Origin: Elsinoe ampelina
Lineage: Eukaryota
Assembly (NCBI GenBank): GCA_010093995.1
Contig: ML992503.1
Location: 1,479,234 to 1,543,233, forward strand
DNA length: 64,000 nucleotides
Direction: 5' to 3'
The notes under the pieces are model-generated. The model did not search any database, was not told the DNA's origin, and worked only from the letters and a program-made list of their open reading frames with translations. Shown piece after piece: positions 594 to 54,614 of this stretch. Numbering within the stretch: the stretch's first letter is position 1; the number at the start of each line of letters is the position of its first letter. The translations under genes and the position numbers were made by a program.

Positions 594-2818
594 TCAAGTC
601 ACATCCCCATTCAAAAGCGTAGCTGCACCATCATCAATCGAGAAGAACGAATCTTCGAAGGCAAAACCGAAGTTCGGTCCTGTTGGTCGCAGAAAGTCTT
701 GTAGCGTCTGGTCATCTTCGGCGCTCCAGGGGAAAGACAGCGGGTTCATAGGTGTCGTCTGCTGATTTGGCAGCGCAGTAGCAGATTGATCGAGCTCAAA
801 GGCTGCATCTGCTGCTGCTGCCGGCCCAAACCCATTAGCAGCGGCTGCCGGACTCGCGGTCTGTGTGGTGAAAGTTAAACCGAAAAGTTCGGACGACGCT
901 TGCTTCAGTTTATGCCTGAAATCCGGCTCTCGATTGCGGATGTAGCTGCTGGTCACATCAACAAGCGTTTGCACGATACTCGAGTATTGGCGTGCGTGCG
1001 GGTCGACTTTTCCAAAGTGTTGGAGGCACTGTACTGATGCCCTAGTTGGCTCTTCTAGGACAAGACCATGACGACCTAACATACCCAGTCCTAAAGTGAG
1101 GGAGGATGCGAACAGCCAAGAACTTTTCTCGTTAGTCAAAGATGTCGTTGGTGGGGGAACGGAGATACCTACACCACACCTGGTGCTAGAGAGGGAACTT
1201 TCTCCGCACTGATGAGGTCCTGGATGATATTGACGAGCGTAATAGCAGCATCGATGGCTCCATCTGCAAACTTCTTCTTGTTCCGCTCTTCATATTGGGT
1301 GGTCGGTGCTCTTGCCTGTGACGTGCCCAACGAGTCGTAAACGTCGTAGATTAAGAAAGGCCGAGCAAGAAGAGTGATACTGTACAGATATGTGCTTACT
1401 ACTTGCAACGCACCGGTAGAGTCTCCTTCTACACCCGGTGTAGGCCTCTCTTCTCCAAGTAGTTCCATAAGCGGCTCTAGCCACGTCGAGGCCCATGCTT
1501 TCAGTTGATTGGAAACGAAGTGAGCGACCTTGACAGAAATATGTTTCCTGCTGTAGACTTGGACAACGACTTGCTCCAGGATGTCAGAAAGCGACAAATT
1601 AGCTTCAAGCAGATTGACAGGTGTCCCGGCTGTCTTAGCGGCTGCTCTGCGATGGGTGTCGTCGGCATCCGATATACCAGGCGGGCGGCCCAAGAGACAG
1701 CTGATGAACAAGTCAAAGACTCGCAGACTTCTCCAGATACGATTCCTGGATCGTCAGTCAAGGTCGCGTTGTCTCCAGCGTACATACCGTAAGGCCTTCA
1801 AAGGCAGTTCAAAAGAAGCATTGACTTCTGCGCGGTGCAGCCCTATTGCATATGCCGACCGAGCTGCCAGTGCTGGAAGAGCTTAGTTGCCGAGTAGATG
1901 GAAGCCGGAGGGCGACTCACAAAAGAAGAGGTAGGCCGCATTCGGCTTGAATGCTCGAAGCATGTACAGCGCCATCAGAGTGTGACCCTGCACCACTTGA
2001 ATGCTCATGTTTTCGCAAAAGTCGTTCTGTATGATGGCCTTGGAATGCTCGAACCAGACTATGGCTCTATCATCTGCAGTCTCCTGTGCACCGATTGCGA
2101 GGATTAGATAGAATACTGCTGAGGTAAGGTCCTTCAGATCTTGTGCACCAGCAGACCAGGCGTCCATCTCGGAGCTGATCAGGGACGGATCGAATATATC
2201 CACCATGCCACTCGAAGCCATCCGATACTGAGACAGCAGGAGAGAAGCCGTTGAAAGGTCGACCTCCGGAAGGGACGATCCAGATCTCGTAGGGTTTGGC
2301 CTTCCAAGCTCGTCCGTCATTTGTGTCTGACAAACCCTTGCGAAGCGAGCATGAGGGTCTAAATCTGTGGTGATAAATTGTCGAACCGCGCGTAGGAAGG
2401 ACAGAGGAGCACAGTCTCCAATGAAGACGGCTTTGCCATCGGCATCGCGAAGCAACTGCCCTGCGAGGGGTACTGCTGTCTCATTTCCGAGATGACTTGT
2501 CATTTCATTGCTGGCGATGGTGCATCTTCGTGGCCCGTTGCTGCCGGCCCAATCGTTAGTCCTGTCATTGGCCTGATCTCGTCTAGGACTGCTTGTCCGA
2601 GCAGGTCCTGGAGTGTGATGCGTGGAGTTTGGCGTTCGAGGACCATTGTGCTGTTGCTGGTCGGAGGCGACAAAGGTGCATGTGTCGGACAGATCTCGTC
2701 GAGCACAGTATGTGCAAGGCCAATTGCCATCACACTTGACTTTCCTGGACCGACAGAGGTTGCAGGCTTGATTCACTCTGTCAAACCGGCGTCGCTTCCG
2801 AGATGCGTCTTCGGCCAT
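594..2818 (-). CDS. Zn(II)2Cys6 fungal transcription factor with middle homology region, multi-exon
   Basis: ACNLCRSRKVKCDGNWPCTYCARRDLSDTC binuclear cluster, FIGDCAPLSFL, FISCLLGRPP; ORFs 1883-2818, 1169-1711 and 594-1139 are joinable through GT-AG introns. Confidence 0.9.
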
Positions 2819-3130
2819 AGGGGCGGCACGTCCTGTCTATGAAGGGTCATATGTAGACGGACACCTTTTCAGATGAAGTTACTGACGTCCCGATGCATTC
2901 CGAGTCAAGTCATTGCTATTGTCAATTGTTGTTGCTGGCATATGAGCAAGAAGTGGTCATGTCCACACGGAGCCGCATCGGGTGTTCCGTCCTCAACCTC
3001 GGATATTGAGAAGCTTCAGCTTCACTCAACTTTTTTCCAACCTGAGCATCATAAGCCATTGACCGCCCACAAGTACTTGTAGCAAATCCAAAAACCGAGA
3101 GGATATCCGCGCTCCTCAGCTCTCTACACA

Positions 3131-5162: not shown

Positions 5163-5734
5163 GCTTGCAGTGATGCTTTGTAGGTTGCGAGTAGGGAACG
5201 ATCTGTGAGATCTCGATGTTCTCTACTGGGAGATATTGGTAGCACTTCGATACTTCATTGCAGGAGAGTATCAATAGAAGAGCAATGCAAAACAGCATCG
5301 TTGGGGTTTAGCCTGAATCCCCACTCATCGGAAGTGGAGACGGCTTATACTTGCCTACCATGGCGTCACGGTCGCTCTGTCTCGTCAAGTATTTACCAGA
5401 TGCAATGGCGTGCTGAAACAAGGTGACAACAAGCCGGGATGTCACAGCTGTGTGTCTATGTACTCGGGTGTGGTATAGGAGGGTAAATAGAAGTCAAGGG
5501 CTGTTACATGTCCGGGAGACTCCGAAGCTCTTCCCTGACGTCGGATCGGTCTTGGCAAGAGCTTTTTCCAATCTGAAGCTTCATCAAGTGAACATTTTAC
5601 CTGCCGCATCAATATCTCTTCCCAGTCAAGCCTTTCACAGTTCCGTCCCCGTCACAGATTGCATTACAAACCTCCCCAGCATCCCCTCCGCGTAGCACCT
5701 CCACCACCACCGACAAATCCCCACACCAACCACA

Positions 5735-33242: not shown

Positions 33243-34581
33243 CTAGTTTGGCCTGGATCTCCTGCTCTTACCAGGTCGCTGCGTCTTGCCTTTCATCTTT
33301 TTGATCGAGAATGATCGAGTATCGGCGCTTGACTCAGCATCGTTGCTCTTCGCAAACCTCTTTTTTCCGCCGTAACCCCACTTATCGTTCTTCTTCTGCC
33401 TCTTTGCGCCCGGGGGACCGGTACCGCCACCCGCCTTACGGGCAGCCTTGTCCTTCTTCTCCGTCACGGCAGCATCTTCGAGCGCAACGTCGAACATGTC
33501 GTCCTCGTTCGCGTTGCCAATGGAGGCACCTGATCGTTCTGGATGGAGTCAGTACGCGCTTTGACGATCCGTAGTGGAAGCTGAACTCACTCTTCTTGAG
33601 CATCTTGATCTTGTCAAGCGTCTCCTTCTTTGCCTTGTCTCTCTCCTGCAGTTTCGCAATCTGTACCTGCTTGCCGAACTTCTTGAGGTCTCTTTGCTTC
33701 CTTGCTTCTGCCGCAGCCTTCTTGCTCGCCGCATCATCCACCAATTTCTTCTTGATCTTACCCATGTGCTCATCAGACTTGACCATCTCCGCGAAGTAGT
33801 CCGCTGGCCGAGAGAAGAGGACGCCTTCCTTCTTGAGTAAAGACCGCGCCTGAGTCACGGCTTCGAGCGATTGTTTGTAGAATGCCAGTTCTCGGCCAAG
33901 GTCGTCCTCGATATCTGCGATTATAGTTGGGGCTGATGAGACCACAGCTTGTGTGGCTGAAAAGGGAAGGGACGCTGGCAACGCTATCGACTTGTATGCC
34001 TTTGTAAGAGCCACGGTGTTGTTGATTGTGAGTCGTTGATGTGGTACCACATCTTCCTTCTCATCAGATGCCAGCGACTCAATGTCCGAGAGCGGGATGT
34101 CCTCATCGTCCTCCTCGTCCTCGTTGTCATCTTGTTCCGCATCGCCGTTCAACGCGTGGCCATTCGTTTTGGCAGTTGGTGTATTCAGGTCGTCTCCTTG
34201 ATCATCTTCCGAATCTGATGTGTCGCTGTCCTGGAGACGTGAGAGATCGAAGCCTGACTTCTCTAGCTCCTCATCCGCGGTCTCCCAATCCTCGGATCCA
34301 TCTGGAGATGGTATCTCATCATCCGAGACCTCCTCTGAGGCGGCCAGAGCATCCTTCTTTTGGCGTTTGGATTTTGGAGTCTTCTCGTCACGGGAAGCTT
34401 TCGGTGTGTGGAATTGGAGCTCTGTCTCGTCCCCCTCGACCTCGCTGCCATCCTCGGCGACTTCTGTCCGTGATCGCTTGCGTTTCAGAGCCTTCTTCTG
34501 CAATCGCTTCTGCTTCTCGAGTTTGTGATCGATACCCTTCTGACGATCTAGCGCGTCTTTCAGCTTAGCCCCTTTAGCCAT
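33243..34581 (-). CDS. EBP2: rRNA-processing protein Ebp2, 2 exons
   Basis: DDLGRELAFYKQSL, RPADYFAEMVKSDEHMGKIK, KKFGKQVQ, KWGYGGKKRFAKSND, RPGKSRR. Confidence 0.95.
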
Positions 34582-34701
34582 TCTTGTGTTCGAGGAAAAG
34601 TCGAAACCCTGTGTGGATGAGGATCTTGAGGTCGAAGAAATTCTCGGATCACAAAAATTTCCCCACACACACGACGCACGGGCCGAAAATCTATTTGCTT
34701 G

Positions 34702-34780
34702 CACCGTCATGCATACGGTAGCTTCCGCCAAAACAGTCAAAACAGTCAAAACGCTCAAAACCATCAAAACGCTTAAACCT
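34702..34780. repeat. Left TIR with about six 9-bp subterminal units (NNTCAAAAC-like)
   Basis: cgccaaaac agtcaaaac agtcaaaac gctcaaaac catcaaaac gcttaaacc; the same array occurs at 42561-42639. Confidence 0.9.
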
Positions 34781-35004
34781 AGCATTTGCTATTACACCAC
34801 CTCCCCGCGCACTACCTATACCACTTATTGCAATGATTCTTATTGCAATCGACAGCTCTTATGACGCTCTATTGTTTAATGTAAGTATTATTCTCTTATT
34901 ATATACCTTTAGTTTTTTGTAGCTTAGCGCTAGTATAAAAGCTAGGTGCGCTAGTTTTCTATACCTTCCTTCCTATTACCCCCTAATATACTACACTACT
35001 CGAT

Positions 35005-36603
35005 ATAGCTTTATAATCCGCTATAATTAAGGTAGATAGGCCTCTTATCGAGTACTAGTTACTATACAAGCGCTATAATTAGCCTAAAGTACTCTAGAGA
35101 CTATTAAGGCGTAGTTACACTCTATTACTTAGAATGCTCTAGCGCCTCTTATAAGGCTAGTAGCTCTCTACCTACCCTAAGGCACTAGTTAACTCCGAGG
35201 CTCTCTACTATAGTATTAAGAAGCTATTCTAGCTATGTATTAGCTAGTAAGAGACGCTAGAGGTATTAAAAGAGTAAGGCTTTGATATATTGTTAGGGAC
35301 GCTAAAGCGCCTATGTAAAGAGTTAGACCTTATCTATCGGATTAATCGAGAAGAGGACAAGGTTAAGTATAAGCGAATATAGTAGCTACTATAAAGCAAA
35401 TATAACACTAGTAATATTAAGGATTAGAGCCTTAGCTACCTTTACACCTATATAAGATAGAAGTATAGGATTATCGGGAGGTAATACGTGTTTGTAATGC
35501 GTTCGCTAGTTGGTTTACTAACTCTAACCTAGTCGGCGCCTTTACTGCGCCGTAATTACAATTAATCCCTTAGCGTTCTAGATTCGTAGTAACTAGCGGC
35601 CTGCTAGTTATAGCGTATAAGATGTGCTAGGGCTAAACTATACCTAGTCGATAGACGCCTATTACAAGCTTAAGGAGTATAGTATTAAGATTTATACTGT
35701 AATTAACAAATTTTCACGCTATATTATTTAGGCCTATATAGGCTTCTCGGCAAGGAAGGCTATATTAATTATAAAGTAGTACACTACTATTGCTGCCTTA
35801 TGTAGCCGGATTCCCCTCGAGATCCGCATAGATAGAGGGAGCAAGACTATAATAGTCTTATAAGTGTATCTCGACGCTTAGCGTTAGCTAAGTAGTCTCT
35901 CTTTAGAGGTAAATAAAGCCTTCTTATTCGGTATAAGTAAGTAGAATTAGTATATTAAATTATAGTAGGCCTAGCTTGCAAAGAGCACTATAAACCGCTA
36001 GCGAAGATAGTTTACTAAGCTAAAGAAGTTAAAGCGCTAGAAGCGTAATTTTATCGCTTACTAAGTCGCTCTTATAGCTATATATATGCCTATCCTTTGC
36101 GTAGAGATATAGCAATTCGTGTATTAATAGAACTATTACTACATCCGGAAGTAGCCGAGACAACCGTACACGATTATAGAAGTGCTAAGGCTCCTATATT
36201 ATTATCTAGAGGTAGTCGGTGTATAGAACTATACCGTTGCTATACTACCTAACTAATTCGACAATTTAGACTAGTATACTAGCGAATTCGGTAAGGTATA
36301 AGTGCTAATAGATATTTGTAGCTAATTAAGCACTAGATTATAAGTAATATCTACTCTCTAATACTCTTAATCTCTATACCTTAATCCTCTCTACCGCTGG
36401 CCTCTAGCCTTATAATAGTCGAGCAACTAATGCTTATAGTGTTAGACTCCACTAGAGAGCTTATTTTATGCTTCGTGATACACTAATTAAGCACGATTAA
36501 TAGTAGCGCTATTCTCTACTATTAGAGTACTAAAAACTAGATAATTCTCGAGGCTATTAATTACATATAGAAGTTGCCGAGCAAATCGCAAACGCTAAGT
36601 AAA
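35005..36603 (+). pseudogene. ORF1 of copy A: tandem HTH (Clr5-like) + IS3/rve-type DDE transposase, RIP-mutated, with introns
   Basis: Literal reading DVLGLNYT*SIDAYYKLKEYSIKIYTVINKFSRYII*AYIGFS...IRIDRGSKT...FLFGISK*N*YIKL**A*L; de-RIPed VPGPNYTWSID...EIYAVIDKFSRYIIW...RTDRGSET...FGTSKQNQRIESWW. D at 35654, D at 35831, inferred E at 35957. Confidence 0.85.
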
Positions 36604-36729
36604 CACACTATAAACATCTAACTTATGTATATTAAATCCTCTCTCTAATATACTAGAGCTTTCCTACTCTATTTTCTCTACGGTTTTTGCTTATTACTAC
36701 TATATTGTTTGTTTATTACTACTAGCGAG

Positions 36730-38340
36730 ATGCCGCTACCTTCTTAGGCACCTTTTTGCAAATATAAAGGCTCTAATTACGTAGTTAAATATAGACACCT
36801 CGCTAAGTGTCCTATTTGCTATAAGACTAATCTAAACTATTAATAAGTAAGTATAGCATTAACGCTAGAAGAGCCTTAGTGCTAACCTATATAGGCTAGT
36901 CTATCTCGCGCACTATCTAGTAGTCTAACTCGCGCGCTATCTTAGACTAACATAGACTAACTCGTAATTATAGCGGCGAATATAAAGCAATCTACAGCGC
37001 TAGCGCTAACCGTATATAGTAGTCTCTCGACTAAAGCTAATATAGCAAGGCGTGCTAGATACTAGAAGGGCAAAAAGGCTAAAGGCGTAGTAGCACAATT
37101 ACTACATATAGAATCTTTACTAGTCTCTTAGCGTTTGTATAAAGACTTGCTAAACAATTTACCTAACGAAGAAACTCCTAAAGGACTAAAGGCTAATAAA
37201 GAGCAAAGGATTAGACTTTACCTCTATAGCCTAATAATCGAGATAGAGTATAAGCTTAAGTATAGCATGCCTTATAAGAAGATTGTCTCTTAGCTAGAGC
37301 TAACTAAGTAGACGGACTAGATTACACTATTAGAGTTTAATACCGAATTACTAGAGAGTAACTACTAAAGAACGTTCTTCTTATTAAATTTAGTCTATAG
37401 TTACTGCCCTAATTCTACTATCTACGATCTAGAAATAGTAATACTACGCTTTACGAAGCGCTATTTTGCACTAATAGAGGACAATAAGGCTATACCTATT
37501 GCCGATAACGTCTTCTAGTAGCCGAGTATCTAGAAGATATTAGTTAGCCTCCTACGTAAGCTAAAATCGAAGTATACTACTATCGAGCATCTCCTTTATA
37601 TTATAATTAAATAAGCTAAGGACGACAAGTTAAAGGAACAGTAGAAGTATATAGAGTATCTATAGAGAGGGTTAGGATCTCCGAGTTACGCTATAAACGC
37701 TAATATAAACATAACAATATTCCTAGCTATAAATACTAAAGCGAATATTAAGGCTAATTCGTAGAATAAAAATCTTTTTATAGAGGACACTAACTTCTTG
37801 TTTTTGAATACTTCTAACGACATTAACGTTAAGCCGGAACCCTTATTAGTTAACAATAAGATTAAGGCCTTAATCGAGAAGTGCACATAGTAAGTTTTAG
37901 TAGCTAGGGCAAAGGGGAAGGAGAAGTAGCCTAGCTAGCTCGTTAACGGCAAGGAGACTATCGACCTTATAGAGTCTTTACTAGCCGCACCTACTGCCGC
38001 CGTGCTAGCTCTACTACTAGAGACTCTACGCTTCTAGCTTTGTACTAGGAGCCTTCTTATAAGTATACTAACTAGCATAGTTAGTAGTGTTAAGTCATTA
38101 ACTACATAGGACAATCTCTTTAACTTAGATAGTACTACCGAGCCTCTACTACCTTTTAACACCCCTTGGCAGCCATAGCGTATAGTGCTAAGTAAGGAGA
38201 CCCTTAGTAGGCTAATAAACTTACTACATAGCTCTCTCTTTAAAGCTAAGTTATCTATAGGATTAGAGTAAAGAATTAAGACTAAGGCAACCTCTAAGGA
38301 GCATTAAGAATAGCACAAGCAAGTTAACAAGCCTAAGTAA
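36730..38340 (+). pseudogene. ORF2 of copy A: unknown protein of about 500 aa with Cys/His N-terminus, RIP-mutated; 3' end approximate
   Basis: ATG 36730 (50812 in copy B), FC..HLAKCPIC, intron about 36847-36894, then a long frame whose stops in the part I translated are all TAG/TAA. Confidence 0.6.
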
Positions 38341-38499
38341 TTATATTAACCTTAAATACATAAGCAAACACGAAGTAATTACTTAGTTAAGGCTAGTAAG
38401 TGTTAAAAGACTATAGTTAATTTAACTAACTACACTCTCCGTAGTTATACTAGCTATAAGGCTAAAAGGCCTTATAAGTCTATACTAGGGTTATAGGCT

Positions 38500-39800
38500 T
38501 GCCTAAAAGGGTAAGGCGTAGTTTGACACCCTATATATATACTTCTTCTTACTAATAATTCTCTTCTAGTAAAAAACCTCTTTATAGAGAGGAGAGAGAA
38601 AGAGAGAGAAGGTAAGAGCCTCCTACGTAGCGGAGAGTATAAGCACTCTCTACTACATCCTACTATCTTACTATTAGGGTAGTAGGGTAGAGAGGGGAGA
38701 TACGAGAGGGAGTAGGGGTAGGGGTAGTAGTAGGGGTAGAGTTAGGGGTAAAGGTATTAGTTAGAGGTATACGAATTAGACAGTGCAAGTTAGATAGTAG
38801 TAGAACAGTTTATAGTACAAGCTAGATAGGTAGTAGACTAGTTTATAGTGTAAGCTAGACAGCAGTATACGAGTTAGACAGTAGTAACGAGTTAGATAGT
38901 AGTACGAGCTAGACGGTAGTAACAAGTTAGACAGCGGTATACGAGTTAGACAGTGTAAGGTAGATAGTGCAAGTAGGATCGCTAGTAGTTCGCTAAGTAA
39001 TTCGTAGTACATATAGTTACAATTTAATATTAACTAGAGAAGGCGATACAAAGGGGGTAAAATTATAGTCTATAAACTCTAGAAGAATATATAGGTATTA
39101 TGTTTGCTACTAGTTTATAGGCCTGTTTACAAGTTCTATAATTCTATCCCTTAGCTACTATAGCTTAGCCTTAGTAGCGAGCGTATTATTCTCTAGCGCC
39201 TCTACTCTCTACTTAAGCTCCTTAATATAGCCCGTAGTTACTAGCTTCTAATTCTCTAGCTCCTCCTTTATAAGCTAAGAGGCATACCCCTAGCAATAGT
39301 AGCGGCGGCAGTATGTATATAACTTAAACGGCTTATTAAGGAAGCAAGTACATAGCTCGTTTACCTTTATACACTATTCGTAGGCGTGTTTACTAATGCT
39401 ACCTTCGTCTATCTCTATAATACGGCTAATAGCGTCGTATATACGGAGCGTTATGAAGTTCTTACTACGCTTATTACCGCTAGTCTCGTAGGTATTAACG
39501 AGCTTAAACTAGTTTAACTCGGAGATAAACTAAAATCTAGCTAGATTCTTAGTCTTAGGGTAGTAGTATAAGTATGTAATAGGGTAGCTATACGAATCAG
39601 TAGCGAACACTAGCCTAAGGAGCTATAAAGACATATATGGCCTTAGAGTTGCTAGTTGTTTCCTTAGAGGTATCGGAGGTATAGGGATCGTTATTAATTA
39701 TAGCATCTAGCGCTTATAGATTGTATCTTCTAGAAGGCGAAGTTAGTAGCGAACTAGCTGCGAACATGCTATAATACATACTTAGTAGAAGTTGCTTTAG
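38500..39800 (-). pseudogene. ORF3 of copy A: Zn2Cys6-like cluster + coiled coil + repetitive tail, RIP-mutated; ends approximate
   Basis: 39382-39284 de-RIPs to CEQC-x6-C-x10-CTYC-x7-C, followed by heptads IKELKQRVEALENNTLATKAKLQQLRDRI; minus-strand intron signals near 39590-39640 and 39730-39780. Confidence 0.6.
38770..38975. repeat. Degenerate 14-21 bp tandem repeats (GAGTTAGACAGYAGTA-like) inside the transposon
   Basis: About 10 copies of agttagac/agctagac cores; also present at about 52855-53055 in copy B. Confidence 0.8.
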
Positions 39801-40319
39801 TGGTGTTAGCTATAGTAAATATTTAATTAAATTTAACAGGGTCGTAATAGTATAGTAGAGTTCTAATTAAACTATATAGTAACTATAAGCTTATATATAT
39901 TAAAGCTGCTATCATTGTTGCTAGTTTAAATAGTAACAATGGTGACAATAGTAATAATATAAAGACCTAAAAGCGGCAAGGAATAATAAACACCTACTAG
40001 ATTAAGCCTTACTCTTAGTAGCTTAAATAGAGGACAATAGAGATCTATTCTAACAGTATTTATAGTGCATTTGCCGCCGTAGTTGTATAATGTAGGCAAT
40101 ATTAAGGTGTTAGAGGTAGGAGTGCTAGCGGAGTACTAAGCACCTCGCTACCTAGCCGCTATAACACGCACTAATTACGCTAGTACTAAAATTAGCTCAA
40201 AAAAAATACTTAAAGTTAGAGGATGATAGAATAGATTAATCTAATCAATTTACTGTTAATTGTATATCAATATTGACAGAATTAAGGGAGTTAGAGGCCT
40301 CCAAACTTTGATGATTTAG

Positions 40320-40380
40320 GGATTTAAGTGTTTTAATGGTTTTGACGGTTTTGGCGGAAGCTACCGTATGCACGACCGTC
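40320..40380. repeat. Right TIR with about four 9-bp subterminal units
   Basis: gatttaagt gttttaatg gttttgacg gttttggcg gaagctaccgtatgcacgaccgtc; the same at about 54402-54462. Confidence 0.9.
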
Positions 40381-40467
40381 GCTTGACGCCGATCCGCCGA
40401 CCTCACGGCGCTCCCGTCCATGCTCGCTTCAACTGTTGCCCCCCTTCCCACATTTACTGCCTACATC

Positions 40468-42364: not shown

Positions 42365-43497
42365 GGTTGGTCGTTCCGAAAGGCTTTGGCGAGACAGGAG
42401 AACGGCAGGTATTGATGGGATTCTCACGACATGGCAGAAATGGCAGCGTGAGTAGCAATGCCCTAGTTTCGCAGAGATGAATGCTCGAGTCAAAGGTGGT
42501 GAGTGAAACGCGAGAGTTGCGGCTCATTCCATCCCGCGCCCTTGACGCGCTTGTCTCGATCACCGTCATGCATACGGTAGCTTCCGCCAAAACAGTCAAA
42601 ACAGTCAAAACGCTTAAAACCATCAAAACGCTCAAACCCAGCATTTGCTATTACACCACCTCCCCGCGCACTACCTATACCACTTATTGCAATGATTCTT
42701 ATTGCAATCGACAGCTCTTATAACGCTCTATTGTTTGATGTAAGTATTATTCTCTTATTGTATACCTTTAGTTTTTTGTGGCTTGGCGCCGGTATAAAAG
42801 CTAGATGCACTAGTTTTCTATACCTTCCTTCCTATTACCCCCTAACATACTACACCACTTGATATAGCTTTACAATCCGCTATAATCGAGGTAGATAGGC
42901 CTCTTATTAAGTACTAGTTACTACATAAGTGCTATAATTAGCCTAAAGTACTCTAGAGGCTATTAAGGCGTAGTTACACCCTATTACTTAGAACGCTCTA
43001 GCGCCTCTTATAAGGCTAGTAGCTCTCTACCTACCCTAAGGCACTAGTTAACTCCGAGGCTCTCTACTATAGCATTAAGGAGCTATTCTAGCTACGTATT
43101 AGCTAGTAAGAGACGCTAGAGGTACTAAAAGAGTAAGGCTTTAATATATTATTAGGGACGCTAAAGCGCCTACGTAAAGAGTTAGGCCTTATCTATTAGA
43201 TTAATCGAGAAGAGGACAAGGTTAAGTATAAGCGAATATAGTAGCTACTATAAAGTAAATACAACGCTAGTAATATTAAGAATTAGAGCCTTAGCTACCT
43301 TTACACCTATATAAGGCAGAAGTATAGAATTGTTAGGAGGTAATACATGTTTGTAATGCGTTTACTAGTTAGTTTACTAACTCTAACCTAGTCGGCGCCT
43401 TTACTACGCTATAATTGTAATTAATCCCTTAGTGTTCTAGATTCGTAGTAACTAGTAGTCTACTAGTTATAGCGTGTAAGACGTGCTAGAGCTAAAC

Positions 43498-43699
43498 TGA
43501 TTACGACTAGCAAGATAGAAGGTTAATTACGTCTATTCGTTAAGATATTAAGAGTTAGAAGAAGAAGAAGAAAGCTAGTCTATAAAGTACATAAGATATC
43601 GAGAGTAGAGCGGCTAGAAGCCTAGGCCGCGAGCTAAGATCACGTGACCTCTCCGACCTAGATACTAACTAAATCCAGTTCGTAATTTATCTTGTATCA
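43498..43699 (-). repeat. 3' LTR of the Gypsy element
   Basis: TGAT...ATCA termini; polypurine tract on the minus strand immediately inside (plus-strand ctaccccccctct, 43700-43712). Confidence 0.95.
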
Positions 43700-46600
43700 C
43701 TACCCCCCCTCTTAATCGCGTTTACCCTTAAACACTATTATATAGATTAGTTAATCTACCTCGGACGAGGTTTATCTATATAAGAGTCTAGATAGTTATA
43801 TAGCACGTTAGCTACTCCTTTTAGATTATTAATTAGGTACTATGTTAGATCTTCTAGATAACCTTTCTAGCTTACTCGAGTAACTAGTCTATTCCGTAGC
43901 TTTCTTATGTCTATAACATTATTAACCTCGTACTTCTCCTTACCTTTAATAGCTACTAGTAGAGGCTCCTCGAAGGCTTATCCTAGTAAGGAGTTATTAG
44001 AGTGTTTAGTAAGTAGGTCGGCATAGAACATAGAGTAGATACGTTATAGTGCCTAAGGGAGCTCTAGCTTATATAAGAGCGCTAAGCGCTTCTCTAGAAT
44101 CTTATAAGGTCTAACCCTCTTTAGTAGTAGCTTAGAGTTCCCTTAAAGCCGGAGGTTCTTTGTCGATAACTATACTCTATTACTAGCTTCGAACTCCGTA
44201 GAAAGACGCCGCTTGTTTACTTATTTAACTATACGTAATTAAGCCTTTACGAGGTTTACCTTAGCGATCTTATAAGTGTCCTCTATCTACTTAGCTAGTG
44301 CGCGGATACTAGCTTTGTTTAGCTTAGCTCGTGTTAATATAGGCTCTACAGGAGGCTAGAAGCTTAGCCTCGGGTTATATCCCTTTATAACTTAGAATAG
44401 TAATAGTTTAGTACTCTCCGAAGAGTTAATATTAGTAGAGAACTTAGCCATCGGAAGGATTAGTAGCCAGTTTACGTATCGATAGCTATAGGTGCGAATA
44501 ACTCGCTTAAAATTGCAATTAGAAACCTCTAACTAGCCGTCTATCTAGGGGTATATAGTAGTAGACAGTTTAGCCGTGACCTTTAGGATCTAGTAGAGTC
44601 TCTTCTATACGTCGCTTACGAATTAGAGGCCTCGATCCGAAGTGATAGTATTAGGTAGACTATAAAGCTTCTATACGTATAAGAATAACAACTTAGCTGT
44701 CTTATACGCTAAGGTGCCTTCGTCTCTAGAGAAGTAGGGGATAAAGTGGCGCTCTTTAGATAGACAGTTAACTACGTAGAGGATAGTATTATAGCCGTCC
44801 ACAAGCGGTAAACTAGTAACGAAGTCTATTGTAATATGCTACTAAGGCTTTTCTAGTATCGGGAGTAGCAAGAGGAGGCTAGCTAGGAGGCTATAGCGAG
44901 CTTTAGAACGCTTATAGTTGTAGCAGTTAGCGACGAACCTTTTAATATTAGTGTTATACTCTAGGATATAGAAGGTGGATTTAATTATAGCTACGGTTTT
45001 AGCGGCTCTAGCGTGTATATAGTCCTTTAAGGTGTAAACTTCTTAAATAACCTTCGTAGCTATCGATAGTAGCACGAATAGTCGACCGGCAACCTAAAGC
45101 ATTCCGTTGTTAATCGCAATATCGGTCGATAGTAACTATTTCCGCTTAGGGAAGGCTCTTGTTATATAGTGGATGCTACGAGCTAACTTAAACTCTAGGT
45201 CTCTTAGGTTAGCTTTAGCTACCTCGTTAAAAAGGGGAGAAGGTAGTTTGTCCTTTAAGGTCGAGATAGAAGCGAGATAGTTATCTAATCTAGTAGCCGA
45301 AATAGATGTCGAACTAGGTAGTAAACTACGTACTAAACTAGATCGCGAATTAGATTCTAGTTCAGTAGTTAAACTAAGCTTGCTTATTTTTAGTTCGGCT
45401 TAAGCTAGTAATCTACCTTAGATACGACCTAGTTCTAATTCGTTAACGATGCGCTAGTCTAGGACTCTATATAGTAGCAGGGTTTAGCGTAGATTAGGGT
45501 CTTCCTTCGAGCGTAGCACGTTACTATTCCTTCTTATAAGTGCGTTAGCTTTGCTATTAGCAGCTCTAGGTCGATATATTATCTTAAAGTTAAACTGTGC
45601 TAGATAGAGAGCCTAGCGTACTTAGCGGCGTAATAGCTTCTAAGTCCTTATAAAGTGCATTAGAGACTAATAGTTAGTAAGGACGTAAATAGTCTTATTA
45701 GGCTAAGCACTTATAAGCTTAGGGGCCTATTCCTCGAAGGCTTAGACGATAGCTAGTAGCTCCTTATCGTAGATAGTATAGTTGCGTTCGGCTTCGCTTA
45801 TAGATTTACTAAAGAAGGTAATAGAGCGGAGTACATTAGAATCGTCGTACTAGGATAGAATACTAGTAGTAGTAGTGTCCGAAGCGTTAGTTTCGAGTAC
45901 TATCTACTTTAAGTAGTCGAAGTGCGCGAGAATCGAAGCACTAGTTATAGTATGCTTTATGTAGTTAAAAGCAGCAGTATACTTATTACTCTAGGGTACG
46001 GCGTCCTTCTTAAGTAGGTCGTTTAGCGGCTTAGCGATAGTACTAAATCCCTTAATAAAGTAGCGATAATAGCTGTAGAAGCTAATAAAGCTCCTAACTT
46101 AAGTAGTATTACTAGGGGCTAGCTACTTCTAGGCTTTAATAGCTTCTACCTTCTTAGGGTCTATCTAGATTCTATCTCGGCTAACAATAATACCGAGGTA
46201 CTTTACTTCCGTTAGGTAGAACTTGCTCTTCTTAATGTTAGTATTAAGGCCTAATTCGTAGAGTTGTTAGAGTACTAGCTTAATGTACTTAGCGTGCTCT
46301 CGGCAAGTGCTATCGGTGTAGATAAGAATGTCGTCAAGGTAGATCGACATAAAGCGCTCTAGTATATTAATGAAGTTATAATTTATAAATCTCTACTATA
46401 TAGCTAGGGCATTAGTGAGGCCGAAAGGCATTACTAGCTATTTGAAGTTGCCTATACATATAGAGAACGTAGTAAGATCTTTATAGTCGATAGAGTTATA
46501 GAGGTAGTAAAAGGCTTAATAGATGTCGATCTTACTAAACTACTTAGCCTTACTAACGCGAGTAAGCGTCTCTTTAATAAGTAGCAGCGGGTAGATATCT

Positions 46601-49513
46601 CGCTTAGTAACCTCGTTTAGGCCGCAGTAATCGACGTAGAGGCGAAGTTCTCTATTCGGCTTCTAGATAAAGAGGATAGGAGATAAATAGCTTATAGAGC
46701 TTAGGGTAATAAACCCCTTATCGAGGTGCTCTCGGATAAACTATTCTACTATATTAAGCTCCTCTAGTAACAGGCGGCGTAAGGGCTTAGTACGCGGAAG
46801 TTTAGCGCTATCCTTTAGAATAATACAGTTATTAAACTCTAGCCGGTGTAGTAGGAGAGTGTTAGATTACTCCTTAGAGAAGACGTTAGCGAATTTACGT
46901 AGCTCCGGTAGTAGAACCTCTATAGAGTCTAGCTCTAGTTCGGAAGCTAGACGGTAGTAGTCCTCGATATTCTTTATAGAGATAGTAAACACTTCGCAAT
47001 TATAATGCTTAGCTTGTAAGGCAAAGGCTATAGCGCCGATAAAGGCTATTATATAGTTCTTTCGAGGTTTAGCGTCACTTACATAGGTAGGTATGTAAGA
47101 GAACTTATACATTAGCTAGAAGCTATAGGAAACTAGCTTAAACTTCTTCTTATCTAGCTTGAAATTCGGCCTAAGTGCCGGCAGCTAAGATAGACAGGCA
47201 GATTCTAGCTCGGAAGCCGAACTAGAATATAGTCTACGAGCTAGACTACGGCTAAACTAGATCTAAACTAGTCGAGCTCCTAGATCTAAGCCGGGCTTAG
47301 ATCTAGATCCTAGCCCTCTAATTAGCTACGGCTGCTACTACTTAACGACAGCTAGGGAGAACTCTTCTTTATAAGTGACTTAGCTAAGCTTATAGTCGAT
47401 ATTAGCTCTATTAGCCTTAAGCTAGCCGAGCCTAAGAATAATGTCGAAACAGCTAATATCTATAATATAGAAAGTCGTAAGACTATTAAACTTACTAGAG
47501 ACGGTAGTAGTAAGGGGGATCTAATAAGTGACTTACTCTATTAGAACACCGTTATAGGCGTTAAGCTAGATAGAGTTAGCTAACGCTATAGGGCAACTAA
47601 AACTCTTAAGCTTATTAAGAACCTTGTAGTTAACTACGGCGCTAATAAGCGCGCTAGTGTCGATAAAGGCTTAGAGCGTAATAGTGCAGTTGTAGTTGTA
47701 TAGGTCGTGTATAGTGATAGGAGTTATAATAGCGGGAGTGTAGTAGCTAACGACGCTGTTTAGTAATTAAACTCCTCCGGATCTATCTCGAATTACTCTT
47801 CTTCCGCTAGAGGATAGGACTTATCCTCCGGCTAGTCGTTTCCCTAGCTAGATAGTTTAGCTAACTTATAATCTATCTTAGGGTCGAACTAGGACTAAAC
47901 TAGATCCGAACTAATGTTAAACTAAGGCTAGGATAGAGCGTGTGCACCTAATTTAGCGAGTCGATCCTAAAGGTATTAAATCTTAGTAGCCTCTATAGCA
48001 CTAATAGTGCAAGTAGAGTAAGTAGTAGTATAGGTAGCTTTCTCGGAGGCGCTAGCTATACACTTAGTAGAGATATAGCTAGGCCTGCCGCATGCGAAGT
48101 AGATAAGTGACTAGGGGGAGTAGAAAGGCTATAGAGCTCCTCTAGTTATAGGGCAAAGAGTAGTAGAAGCGGATATAGAATAAGCCACTCGAGTTAGGGC
48201 ACTAGTAGCGCGGTTTATAGCTAGCGTAGAGCGGAGGGCCTAAGTGCGCCTAGAGATAAGGTTACTCTACTAGATATTATAATTGGTAGTATAAGTCTTA
48301 GCGATAAAGGAGGTAAGGTCGTCTATGTCGAAATTAATAAGGGCAACGCGTAACTCGTTAGATATCTTCTAGCGTAGCTAGTAGAGCTACTCGTCCTTAG
48401 CGATCTTAGCGTAGAGAGCGTACTTGTTAAACTCGCTAATAAAGGAATTAAAAGAGGTATTACGCTAGAATAGGCTAGCGAACTAAGCGCGTGCTATAGC
48501 CTTACAGTTAGAGTCTTCGAAGCGCTAGGCTAAGAGGGCTAAGCCTTTACTAACGTTAATAGTGTTATCGCTAGCAGAGTCTATAATAAGGGTGTATACT
48601 TCTCTAGAGAGGCGTAAGTAGAGGTATACGAACTAGGTAGCCTCGGTAGAGAATCGGTTAGCGTTAGCACGTATCTTGTTCTTTATCTAGTGCTTAAAGA
48701 CCTTAAACTGCTCTAGGGTGCCGCTACTAAACATAGCTAGGTCTAGGATCTTTTCTAATAGGGTAGCGCCTCTAGTAGAAGAGGTTAGTATAGCGCGCTC
48801 TACTTCGGCCTTTAGCTAGGCTAGCTCGGCCTTAAGCTTATTAATGTTAGCAAGGTAGCGCGTAGCTTAGGTAGTAAGATTGTTAGTAGTACTATTAGAT
48901 GTATCTAGATCGGCTATAGCATTATCGAGCTAGTAGTGTAAATTAAGAGCGTCGGAACGTACTAAGTTACATATAATAACCTACTTGTTATAGGTGAACT
49001 CGACAAAGGCGAAGGCCTTACGTAGAGTAGTTATACTATCTATCTCTTATAGCCTCTTCTTAAGGTCGTCGTCGCTAAGGCAAATAAGATTGTAGTAAGC
49101 TAACTAGACTAGTTCGTTATTGTTGTTAGTAGGAGGTAGAGGAATATTACTTACGTAGTAGTCGTTGCTAGGGTTAGGGCAAGCTATGCTCGGCGAGGTT
49201 AGTTATGAATTTGTAGTATAAAAGTTAATACGTAACAAAGGGGATATCTAAAAAATTTAGCTAAAGGCCTACTTCCTTTAAGAGTCGTCTATAACTCGAC
49301 TTATTATCTTCTTCTTATATTTATAATATTGACCTACGCGGCAGTAGCGAGGATCTATTATAGTATATGCGGGAACTGTAGTTGTAATAGCTTCTTCTTT
49401 AATTCTTTAATTCTTTGTAAATAGTAGTTGTTAGAATTACGTAAGTAGTAGGAGAGCTAGATAGTTTAATAGCTCTATCGCTTAATTACGGGAGCTTCGA
49501 ACTCTTAATATAG

Positions 49514-49715
49514 TAATTACAACTAGCAAGATAGAAGGTTAATTGCGTCTATTCGTTAAGATATTAAGAGTTAGAAGAAGAAGAAGAAAGCTAGTCTATA
49601 AAGTATATAAGATATTAAGGGCAAAGTAGCTAGAAGCCTAGGCTACGAGCTAAAATTACGTAACCTCTCCGACCTAGATACTAACTAAATCCAGTTCGTA
49701 ATCTATCTCGTATTA
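49514..49715 (-). repeat. 5' LTR of the Gypsy element
   Basis: 202-bp direct repeat of 43498-43699; the differences seen are transitions (termini RIPed to TAAT...ATTA). Confidence 0.95.
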
Positions 49716-52700
49716 TAAACTATACCTAGTCGATAGACGCCTATTATAAGCTTAAGGAGTATAGTATCGAGATTTATGCCGTAATTAACAAATTTTTACG
49801 CTATATTATTTAGGCCTATATAGGCTTCTTAGTAAGGAAGGCTATGTTAATTATAAAGTAGTACACTACTATTACTACCTTATGTAGCTAGATCCCCCTC
49901 GAGATCTACACGGATAGAGAGAGCAAGACTATAATAGTCTTATAAGTGTATCTCGACGCTTAGCGTTAGCTAAGTAGTCTCTCTTTAGAGGTAGATAAAG
50001 CCTTCTTATTCGGCACGAGTAAGTAGAATTAGCGTATTAAATTATAGTAGGCCTAGCTTGTAAAGAGTACTATAAACCGCTAGCGAAGATAGTTTACTAA
50101 GCTAAAGAAGTTAAAGCGCTAAAAGCGTAATCTTATTACTTACCGAGTCGCTCTTATAGCTATATATATACCTATCCTTCGCGTAGAGGTATAGCAATTT
50201 ATATATTAATAGAACTATTACTACATCCAGAAGCAGCTAAGATAACTATATATAATTATAGGGGTACTAAGACTCCTATATTATTATCTAGAGGTAGTTA
50301 GCGTATAGGACTATACTATTACTATACTACCTAACTAATTCGACAATTTAGACTAGTATACTAGCGAATTCGGTAAGGTGCGAGTACTAATAGATATTTA
50401 TAGCTAATTAAGCACTAAATTACAAGTAATATCTACCCTCTAATACTCTTAATCTCTATACCTTAATCCTTTCTACTGCTAGCCTCTAGCCTTATAATAG
50501 TCGAGCAACTAATACTTATAGTGTTAGACTCCACTAGAGGGCTTATTTTATGCTTCGTAATATACTAATTAAGCACGATTAATAGTAGCGCTATTCTCTA
50601 CTATTAGAGTGCTAAAAACTAAATAATTCTTAAGGCTATTAATTGTGTATAGAAGTTGCCGAGCAAATCGTAAACGCCGAGTAAATACACTATAAACATC
50701 TAACTTATATATATTAAATCCCCTCTCTAATATACTAGGGCTTTTCTACTCTATTTTCTCTACGGTTTTTACTTATTACTACTATGTTATTTGTTTATTA
50801 CTACTAGCGAGATGCTACTACCTTCTTAGGCATCTTTTTACAAATATAAAGGCTCTAATTATATAGTTAAATATAGACACCTCGCTAAGTGTCCTATTTA
50901 CTATAAGACTAATCTAAACCATTAATAAGCAAGTATAGTATTAACGCTAGAAGAGCCTTAGTGCTAACCTATATAGGCTAGTCTATCTCGCGCACTATCT
51001 AGTAGTCTAACTTACGCGCTATCTTAGGCTAACATAGACTAACTTACAATTATAGTAGCGAATATAAAGCAATCTATAGCACTAGCGCTAACTGTATATA
51101 GTAGTCTCTCGACTAAAGCTAATACGGCAAGGCGTGCTAGATACTAGAAGGGCAAAAAGGCTAAAGGCGTAGTAGTACAATTACTACATGTAGGATCTTT
51201 ACTAGTCTCTTAGCGTTTATATAAGAACTTACCGAACAATTTGCCTAACGAAGAAACTCCTAAAGGACTAAAGGCTAATAAAGAGTAAAGGATTAGACTT
51301 TACCTCTACGGCCTAACAATCGAGATAGAGTATAAGCTTAAGTATAGTATACCTTATAAGAAGATTGTCTCTTAGCTAGAGCTAACTAAGTAGATAGACT
51401 AAATTACGCCGTCGGAGTTTAATACTAAATTACTAGAGAGTAACTACTAAAGAATGTCCTTCTTATTAAATTTAGTCTATAGTTACTGCTCTAATCCTAC
51501 TATCCGCGATCTAGAAATAGTAATACTACGCTTTACAAAGCGCTATTTTACACTAATAGAGGACGATAAGGCTATACCTATTACTAATAACGTCTTCTAG
51601 TAGCTAAGCATCTAGAAGATGTTAGTTAGCCTCCCGCGTAAGCTAAAATCGAAGCGTACTACTATTAAGTATCTCCTTTATATCGTAATTAAATAAGCTA
51701 AGAATAACAAGTCGAAGGAATAGTAGAAGTGTATAAAGTATCTATAGAGAGAGTTAGGATCTCCAAGTTACGCTATAAACGCTAATATAAATACAATAAT
51801 ATCCCTAGCTACGAATATCGAAGCGAATATTAAGGCTAATTTATAGAATAAAAATCTTTTTATAGAGGACACTAACTTCTTGTTTTTAAATACTTCTAAC
51901 AACATTAATATTAAGCTAGAACCCTTGTCGGTTAATAATAAGATTAAGGCCTTAATCGAGAAGCGCACATAGCAAGTTTTAGTAGCTAGAGCAAAGGGGA
52001 AGGAGAAGTAGCCTAGCTAGCTTGTCGATAGTAAGGAGACTATCGACCTTATAGAGTCTTTACTAGCTGCACCTGCTACTGCCGTGCCAGCTCTACTACT
52101 AGAGACTCTACGCTTCTAGCTTCGTACTAGAAGCCTTCTTATAAGTATACTAACTAGTATAGTCGGCAGTGTTAAGTCATTAACTATATAGAATAATCTC
52201 TTTAACTTAGATAGTACTACCGAGCCTCTATTACCTTTTAACACCCCTTGGCAGCTATAGCGTATAGTGCTAAGTAAGGAGACTCTCGGTAGGCTAATAA
52301 ACTTACTATATAGCTCTCTCTTTAAAGCTAAGTTATCTATAGGATTAGAGCAAAGAATTAAGACTAAGGCAACCTCTAAGGAGCATTAAGAATAGTACAA
52401 GTAAGTTGACAAGCCTAAGTAATTATATTAACCTTAAACACATAAGCGAATATAAAGCAATTACTTAGTTAAGGCTAGTAAGTGTTAAAAGACTATAGTT
52501 AATCTAACTAACTATACTCTCTATAGTTATACTAGCTATAAGGCTAAAAGGCCTTATAAGTCTATACTAGGGTTATAGGCTTGCCTAAAAGAGTAAGGCG
52601 TAGTTTAACACTCTATATATATACTTCTTCTTGCTAATAATTCTCTTCTAGTAAAAAACCTCTTTATAGAGGAGAAGGAGAAGGGAAGGGGGGGTAAGAG

Positions 52701-54614
52701 CCCCCTACGTAGCGGAGAGTATAAGCACTCTCTACTATATCCTACCGCCTTACTATTAGGGTAGTAGGGTAAAGAGGGGAAATGCGAGGGGGGGTAGGGG
52801 TAGAGGTAGTAGTAGAGGTAGAGTTAGAGGTAAAGGTGTTAGTTAGAGGTACACGAATTAGATAGTATAAGTTAAATAGTAGTAGAATAGTTCGTAGTAC
52901 AAGCTAGATAGGTAGTAGACTAGTTCGTAGTACAAGCTAGACGGCAGTATACGAGTTAGACAGTAGTAACGAGTTAGATAGTAGTACAAGCTAGACAGTA
53001 GTAACGAGTTAGATAGCAGTATACGAGTTAGATAGTGTAAGGTAGATAGTACAAGTAGAATCGCTAGTAGTTCGCTAAGTAATTCGTAGTACGTATAGTT
53101 ACGATTTAATATCGACTAGAGGAGGCAATATAAAGAGAGTAAAATTATAGTTTATAAACTCTAGGAGAATATATAGGTATTATATTCGCTACTAGTTTAT
53201 AGGCCTATTCGTAAGTTCCGCAATTCTATCCCTTAGCTACTATAGCTTAGCCTTAGTAGCAAGCGTATTATTCTCTAGCGCCTCTACTCTCTACTTAAGC
53301 TCCTTAATACGGCCTATAGTTACTAGCTTCTAATTCTCTAGCTTCTCCTTTGTAAGCTAAGGGGCATACCCCTAGCAATAGTAGCAGCGGTAGTATATAC
53401 ACGACTTAGACAGCTTATTAAGAAAGTAAGTACATAGCTCGTTTACCTTTATACACTATTTATAGGCGCGTTTACTAATGCCGCCTTTGTCTATCTCTAT
53501 AATACAGCTAATAGTGTTATATATATAGAGCGTTACAAAGTCCTTACTACGCTTATTACTACTAGTCTCGCAGGTGTTAACGAGCTTAAACTAGTTTAAC
53601 TCGGAGATAAACTAAAATCTAGCTAGATTCTTAGTCTTAGGGCAGTAGTATAAGTATATAATAGAGTAGCTATACGAATTAGTAGCGAATACTAGCCTAA
53701 GGAGCTACGAAGACATATACGGCCTTAGAGTTACTAGTCATTTTCTTAGAGGTATTAGAGGCATAGGGATTATTATTAATTATAGTGTCTAGCGCTTATA
53801 GATTATATCTTCTAGAAGGCAAAGTTAGTAGCGAACTAGCTATAAACATGCTATAATACATACTTAGTAGAGGTTGCTTTAGTAGTGTTAGCTATAGTAA
53901 ATATTTAATTAAATTTAACAGGGTTATAATAGTATAGTAGAGTTCTAATTAAACTATATAGTAACTATAAGCTTATATATATTAAAGCTGCTATTATTGT
54001 TGCTAGTTTAAATAGTGACAATAGTAATAATAGTGACAATATAAAGACCTAAAAGCAGTAAGGAACAATAAACACCTACCGGATTAAGCCTTACTCTTAG
54101 TAGCTTAAATAGAGAACAATAGAGATCTATTCTAATAGTATTCGTAGTGCATTCGCTGCTGTAGTTGCATGATATAGGCAATATCAAGGTGTTAGAGGTA
54201 GGAGTGCTAGCGGAGTGCTAAGCACCTTACTACCTAGCCGCTATAACACGCACTAATTACGCTAGCACTAAAATTAGCTTAAAAAAAATACTTAAAGTTA
54301 GAGGATGATAGAATAGATTAATCTAATCAATTTACTATTAATTGTATATCAATATTGACAGAATTAAGGGAGTTAGAGGCCTCCAAACTTTGATGATTTA
54401 GGGATTTAAGTGTTTTGATGGTTTTGACGGTTTTGGCGGAAGCTACCGTATGCACGACCGTCTCGATCAGGAAATTTTCCACCAAGGTCTTTTCAATCAG
54501 CTTTGTTAAACTTGATGGCAATAGCAGTAGCCTTTGTCGACCACATTACAAAGAACTTCAATCTATTTCATTCTCATCCGTAGCTTCCTGTTGATGACCT
54601 TCAAGCGTTTCGCC

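Follow-up and report, generated by a model that had tools for sequence, protein, structure and literature searches.

A probably once-coding minus-strand frame with a cysteine-rich segment and a zipper-like helix in a degraded Ginger-like transposon of Elsinoe ampelina

The degraded transposon and its minus-strand frame

The window analysed here, a 64,000-nucleotide stretch of the Elsinoe ampelina genome (GenBank assembly GCA_010093995.1, contig ML992503.1, positions 1,479,234 to 1,543,233 of the forward strand), has a GC content of ∼54% and features three AT-rich islands (∼35% GC) at 35–40.5, 43–49 and 49–54.5 kb. Self-comparison of the window by BLAST identified these islands as two copies, A and B, of one DNA transposon with terminal inverted repeats (TIRs; Table 1). 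The element holds the relic of an integrase-type transposase on the plus strand and, on the minus strand, a degraded second open reading frame (ORF), designated ORF3, with a cysteine-rich part near residue 100 and a zipper-like helix at its C-terminus. An initial annotation made from the sequence had proposed that this frame encoded a Gal4-like Zn2Cys6 and coiled-coil protein belonging to the transposon itself.

Copies A and B differ at 469 positions over 5,679 bp, exclusively by transitions (C/T or G/A) and with zero indels, a signature of repeat-induced point mutation (RIP) and hence of a fungal host; by sequence context the differences fall into CpG (213), CpA (170), CpC (61) and CpT (25). 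Both copies are dead, having been inactivated by RIP, with copy B also broken by the insertion of a Ty3/Gypsy retrotransposon.

Nine stops interrupt the minus-strand frame from 39418 to 39104, leaving no open reading frame today. The peptide strings quoted in the initial annotation were located in the minus-strand frame with codons starting at 39418 in copy A, with the variant form in copy B at an offset of 14082. All nine stops from 39418 to 39104 are TAG, against a background TAG share of 52.7% over six frames (P ∼0.003), and the TAG-only run extends over 12/12 stops, 39625 through 39109, with a TAA on either side (39700 and 39100); ratios of TAG to TAA in comparison frames were 17 to 4 for the integrase and 30 to 16 for the Gypsy pol frame. 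Such TAG stops point to RIP products of CAG (Gln) or TGG (Trp) codons. Mapping of the frame by the absence of TGA was dropped, TGA being rare in every frame.

A five-heptad leucine-zipper-like helix is encoded ∼16 codons downstream of the cysteine-rich motif, in the same frame. Scoring of 35-residue windows for Leu, Ile, Val or Met at a and d positions, less the hydrophobic residues elsewhere and twice the Pro/Gly count, gave the window starting at 39226 a value of 7 in the A/B consensus (5 in raw copy A), the unique maximum among 11,150 windows in six frames, with the next-best frame at 2, bearing out the heptad helix originally read after the cluster. A score of 5 was reached in 0/200 whole-element shuffles, and a score of 7 in 0/2,000 local dinucleotide shuffles and 0/2,000 codon-order shuffles of the same amino-acid composition, while Tandem Repeats Finder shows no repeat within 39100–39420 able to mimic heptad periodicity. 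The TAG codons of the zipper all lie at non-core positions. AlphaFold2 modelling of the peptide, with stops read as X, returned a mean predicted local distance difference test (pLDDT) score of 56 and is confident for the helix only, with residues 60–105 scoring 74–86 and residues 1–50 below 50. The top matches of a PDB sequence search were GCN4-zipper variants (E 0.1–0.3), alongside MafB and SMC4, all falling on the helix, with no Zn2Cys6 chain among the matches.

On the strength of the heptad statistics and the TAG-only stops, the minus-strand frame was very probably once a gene of the element. The case also illustrates that heptad statistics combined with stop-codon type can bring back the coding history of RIP-ruined DNA without recourse to homologues.

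Table 1. Features of the transposon copies and of the ORF3 relic; coordinates are window positions.
Feature	Position	Strand	Details
Second-ORF relic (ORF3)	39100–39682	−	∼180–195 codons; ATG at 39682 and 39634; TAA at 39100
Cys-rich motif	39284–39384	−	Proposed six-Cys segment of ORF3
Cys1 (proposed)	39382	−	A TAC, B TAT (Tyr)
Cys2	39373	−	A TGT, B TGT
Cys3	39352	−	A TGT, B TGT
Extra Cys, two residues after Cys3	39346	−	A TGC, B TAC
Cys4	39319	−	A TAT, B TGT
Cys5	39310	−	A TGC, B TAC
Cys6 (proposed)	39286	−	A TAT, B TAT (Tyr)
Five-heptad leucine-zipper-like helix	39122–39226	−	a = I,V,T,L,I; d = L,L,T,L,L
ORF3 relic in copy B	∼53182–53764		Cys-rich part 53366–53466; A coordinate + 14082
Integrase-type (rve clan) DDE transposase relic	35398–36253, core 35636–36152	+	Pfam rva_4 PF24764
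Copy A, TIR transposon	34702–40380		5,679 bp; self-BLAST, termini, target site duplication
Copy A target site duplication	34697–34701 and 40381–40385		GCTTG (5 bp)
Left TIR, copy A	34702–34762	+	∼60 bp; CGG-N6-CCG at 34716–34727
Right TIR, copy A	40320–40380	−	CGG-N6-CCG at 40355–40366
Copy B, left part	42561–43498		Self-BLAST, A/B alignment, termini
Copy B, right part	49716–54462		Carries ORF3 relic at A coordinate + 14082
Copy B target site duplication	42556–42560 and 54463–54467		TCGAT (5 bp)
Ty3/Gypsy long terminal repeat (LTR) retrotransposon nested in copy B	43498–49715	−	6.2 kb; ∼200-bp LTRs; target site duplication TAAAC

The cysteine-rich segment and its likeness to zinc clusters

The six proposed Cys positions are separated by x2, x6, x10, x2 and x7 residues, as initially annotated, and codon readings in both copies agree with the earlier account of intact Cys2, Cys3 and Cys5 in copy A, intact Cys4 in copy B, and Tyr codons (TAC/TAT) at Cys1 and Cys6 in both. 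When each position may be Cys or Tyr and three or more are true Cys, this relaxed pattern turns up a single time in all six frames of copy A, in ∼1% of 300 dinucleotide shuffles and never in the nested Gypsy element; with a minimum of four Cys in the two-copy consensus, the share of shuffles is 0.3%.

Sister copies of the element were obtained from sequencing run X1 (X2 being the same sample, possibly the one from which the window came), sharing ∼70% of the words, in which 92 contig pieces match 38950–39600 at 80% likeness and differ at 144 variant places (130 transitions), indicating a family of many differently mutated copies; at least 7 contigs span the motif. Runs X3, X7 and X10 yielded no contigs matching the stretch, and no RNA run is among those listed as sharing its words. 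Codon readings from these copies rest on the best-supported 40 of the 144 variant places, and include TGT at Cys4 (39318 T>C, 4 contigs), a TGC/TAC polymorphism at both Cys5 (39309) and the extra Cys (39345), and an Arg two residues ahead of Cys1 (39387 T>C, 6 contigs). An apparent Cys at 39295 goes back to CGC (Arg) altered by RIP, with A>G in 5 sister contigs, and this Arg origin removes a misfit Cys from the pattern. Cys2 to Cys5 are supported as true cysteines; Cys1 and Cys6 would be former cysteines, converted from TGY to TAY. One X1 sister contig carries an in-frame 3-base deletion at 39303, inside the motif.

Proteins of the Gal4 family present the cluster first and the zipper after it; Gal4, Ppr1 and Put3 form dimers by way of the zipper and recognise pairs of CGG half-sites, and clusters of this type are Lys/Arg-rich between Cys2 and Cys3, where they contact CGG. 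ORF3 resembles this subclass in its Cys spacing at positions 2–5, with Tyr, one RIP step off, at positions 1 and 6; in a Pro before Cys4 and Arg-Arg after Cys5, flanking features that also include a Lys-Arg-Ala run before Cys1; and in a dimerisation-type coiled coil after a short linker, present as the five-heptad register in the same frame. The TIRs of the window element also carry CGG-N6-CCG. Unlike Gal4-type proteins, however, ORF3 is two Cys short, features an extra Cys, allows at most one basic residue from Cys2 to Cys3, lacks a hidden Markov model (HMM) match, and would have encoded ∼190 residues without a regulatory domain, inside a transposon. GATA-like and basic leucine zipper (bZIP) readings were dropped by eye, their signature residues being missing.

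Several results weigh against an element-borne Zn2Cys6 protein. In the two-copy consensus, Cys occupies four of the six cluster positions, and positions 1 and 6 are Tyr in both copies. Among the best 40 of the 144 variant places there is no Cys-restoring T>C at 39381 (Cys1) or 39285 (Cys6), and any restoring letter would have a support below ∼528 of a depth of ∼1,450–1,700; reversions at the ORF3 TAG codons are likewise missing from these 40 places, yet a real heptad register requires the TAGs of the zipper to stem from RIP, so that the 40 places are too few to count against Cys1 and Cys6. Since RIP acted at CpG too, Arg CGY codons can turn into Cys TGY, and a TGY codon in ORF3 may stem from Arg, as at 39295. 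Even with all RIP reversions allowed, 1/6 residues in the Cys2–Cys3 segment can be basic (Lys). Pfam Zn_clus (PF00172; cut-off 21 bits), the HMM proposed as a check in the initial annotation, found no match in copy A or copy B at E ≤ 10, X standing for stops, and none at E ≤ 1 in a six-frame scan of the element; silence is expected for a copy without two Cys, because an intact host Zn_clus domain in the window (1883–2836) scores just 31.2 bits. Exhaustive HMMER searching of 1.84 billion protein representatives with an A/B profile returned no Zn_clus homology. A RIP-aware Smith–Waterman alignment, in which a codon may stand for every residue to which the RIP contexts seen here could lead (a permissive method with an inflated background and low power), placed ORF3 in the top 8–9% of 282 blocks when aligned with the single host Zn2Cys6 domain, which is not significant, and the best whole-element scores lay outside ORF3. 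At the level of the element, the start codon of ORF3 is uncertain, and five related fungal loci conserve nothing beyond the integrase, in contigs that do not cover the ORF3 region.

The sole match of the profile search (P0001), a bacterial repeat protein hit six times by the heptad part, was rejected as spurious, and Pfam matched no other zinc-finger family on ORF3 either. The host domain used above belongs to a Zn2Cys6 transcription-factor exon at 1883–2836 on the minus strand, the window's only match to the strict six-Cys pattern (C-x2-C-x6-C-x5-12-C-x2-C-x6-8-C); a word-seeded protein search with this region returned one close relative (P0003), too few for a Zn_clus profile.

The cysteine-rich part of ORF3 likely bound zinc in some fold. 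Judged from sequence, a Zn2Cys6 fold is marginally favoured, because of the exact Cys2–Cys5 spacing, the Tyr codons at the two gaps, the Lys-Arg-Ala, Pro and Arg-Arg features and the zipper, and is doubted because Cys1 and Cys6 are unconfirmed, basic residues are few and no profile matches. Of the earlier proposal of an element-borne zinc-cluster protein, the location between the TIRs of both copies, the former coding capacity and the pairing of a Cys-rich segment with a zipper-like helix stand, the Zn2Cys6 identity is not established, and the suggested roles in transposase regulation, end binding, target choice or counter-silencing are putative.

A putative accessory protein and competing explanations

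The best explanation, on which the evidence appears evenly balanced, is that the stretch is what RIP has left of the second gene in a TIR DNA transposon with two genes, in which an integrase-type DDE transposase is encoded on the plus strand near the left end, and a protein of ∼190 residues would be encoded on the minus strand, read inward from near the right end. This small protein would comprise a Cys-rich segment, most likely of the Gal4 Zn2Cys6 type, a short linker and the five-heptad zipper; by analogy with Gal4-family factors, it may have bound zinc, dimerised through the zipper and bound paired half-sites in the element ends or elsewhere, helping or regulating the integrase-type transposase, with an accessory DNA-binding factor as its likeliest role in transposition. 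The earlier observation of CGG/CCG triplets in the TIRs was borne out, with CGG-N6-CCG at all four ends, one per end (starting at 34716, 40355, 42575 and 54437). The window as a whole contains 14 such motifs against 10.9 expected, which is no enrichment. All four ends repeat a single sequence, and a CGG/CCG pair at any spacing would have counted; binding of the ORF3 protein to these sites is conjecture, offered as a lead only. The fuller proposition of an integrase-type transposon family with its own minimal Gal4-like protein, dimerising on the TIR CGG-N6-CCG as a transposition cofactor or regulator, is unlikely. No internal TIRs or inverted repeats point to a separate nested element around ORF3.

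Chance resemblance in non-coding, RIP-mutated DNA rich in Tyr, Leu and stops could be proposed from the nine in-frame stops, the lack of any Pfam or sequence homologue and the post hoc choice of the motif. This reading is already disfavoured, and is very improbable given that the heptad register was equalled in 0/200 and 0/4,000 shuffles, the stops are TAG only (P ∼0.003) and the Cys pattern arises in 0.3–1% of shuffles, with all three signals sharing one frame and following each other as expected. An unlikely but credible alternative retains the ORF and zipper and regards the Cys-rich segment as a different zinc-binding or Cys/His motif, in which the present Tyr codons would derive from His (CAY>TAY) or represent ancestral Tyr; under the RIP contexts seen here every TAY could go back to Cys, His or Arg, Cys1 and Cys6 lack support, a further Cys stands shortly past Cys3, basic residues between Cys2 and Cys3 are few and Zn_clus finds no match, and with the Cys1/Cys2 and Cys4/Cys5 pairs 17 residues apart a four-ligand finger is conceivable. 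Cys2 to Cys5 nonetheless match the Zn2Cys6 spacing exactly, with Tyr at exactly the two gaps, the cluster-then-zipper order is that of the Gal4 family, and Pfam offered no other zinc-finger family in its place.

The frame may alternatively be a passenger, the 5′ part of a host Zn2Cys6 gene (DNA-binding domain and dimerisation helix) that was captured and amplified with no role in transposition. Zn2Cys6 genes exist in the host genome, including the one in the window at 1883–2836, the relic breaks off directly behind the zipper, as expected of a captured first exon, relatives of the element conserve the integrase region only, and a search of the literature, in the text available to it, found no transposon-encoded Zn2Cys6 protein (the words ‘zinc’ and ‘Zn2Cys6’ do not occur in PMC5751038). 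Capture is unlikely, however, in view of the plausible start and stop codons of the relic's own and the lack of detectable similarity to the window's host factor.

Accessory DNA-binding proteins are encoded by a few DNA-transposon superfamilies, as exemplified by PIF/Harbinger, where a Myb-like DNA-binding protein lies beside the transposase. The proposed arrangement of a TIR element with a separate small DNA-binding protein beside a DDE transposase would resemble PIF/Harbinger by analogy and not by homology, as the transposase superfamily, target site duplication and DNA-binding fold are all unrelated. If confirmed, the ORF3 protein would represent a second gene for an integrase-type fungal element and would tie mobile DNA to the largest fold among fungal transcription factors, with bearing on the multiplication of these factors and on the recognition of transposon ends; if true, a mobile element would here be using the fungus-specific zinc cluster for the first time, and might serve to spread or seed Zn2Cys6 DNA-binding modules across the genomes of fungi.

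Transposase, element class and genomic surroundings

A six-frame Pfam scan of the element, with stops read as X, identified rva_4 as the single family found, with copy A scanned alone at E 9.6e-6 and 25.9 bits (0.1 short of the cut-off of 26), copy B alone at E 1.3e-4, and rve itself at E 0.26 only. Word-seeded protein searches with the integrase region, at near and longer lengths, gave no matches, and a PDB sequence search with the integrase stretch gave noise only. Protein-level scanning of contigs identified five fungal metagenome loci (L001–L005) with related, also AT-rich elements, at 32–45% identity to the degraded query and 72–75% DNA identity in the core; by tblastx, conservation is confined to 35398–36253, with the part upstream of the integrase core (35398–35493) conserved in L003–L005. 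These contigs stop 0.3–1.7 kb past the core, and the sequence that is present, which excludes the ORF3 region, holds no Zn2Cys6-like or heptad stretch; a C/H/Y-rich match at L002 5288 was dismissed as low complexity. The relatives L001–L004 are RIP-like elements that fall into two subfamilies.

The left ends of L001–L004 carry GACGG at positions 1–5 and CCGCC at positions 24–28, and the right TIR of the window element, read on the minus strand, likewise starts with GACGG and features CCGCC at positions 24–28. The end-motif sites lie at 5228 (L001), 5225 (L002), 2219 (L003) and 5279 (L004), with the window counterpart at 40353–40380. The element terminates in CACCGTC on the left and GACCGTC on the right (GACGGTC on the other strand), the left end carrying CACCG in place of GACGG in both copies A and B. 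The ∼60-bp TIRs of each copy contain 9-bp subterminal repeats, CAAAACNGT; metagenome contigs scanned with the TIR core gave 0 matches.

Target site duplications of 4 bp in Ginger1, 4–5 bp in Ginger2 and 6 bp in Polinton elements are given in the available text of PMC10045372, and that of PMC2836005 describes Ginger2 with TIRs of 45–297 bp, TGTNR termini and an H2C2 finger, and autonomous Ginger1 elements as encoding one transposase. Relative to Ginger2/TDD as described in these texts, the window element is alike in its rve-clan integrase-like transposase, its TIRs of tens of bp and its 5-bp target site duplication, and differs in ending with CACCGTC/GACCGTC where Ginger2 has TGTNR, and in a transposase whose top Pfam match is rva_4, not rve. 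From its sequence features the element may be described as Ginger-like, and is not filed as Ginger2 because TGTNR termini are absent.

The nested Ty3/Gypsy element matches RVT_1 (E 6.5e-20) and RT_RNaseH_2 (E 4.1e-22) in Pfam, together with Integrase_H2C2 and SH3_Tf2-1; it is also RIP-mutated, and inserted where the integrase core of copy B begins. A tandem-repeat array of 33–35-bp (and 17–18-bp) units occupies 38782–38958, within the element and just downstream of the ORF3 relic. Copy A lies in the promoter region of the rRNA-processing gene EBP2 (33439–34581, minus strand; Pfam Ebp2, E 4.7e-63), ∼120 bp upstream of its start codon, and the GC-rich host part of the window features an 81-bp direct tandem duplication at 393–550 with 96% identity.

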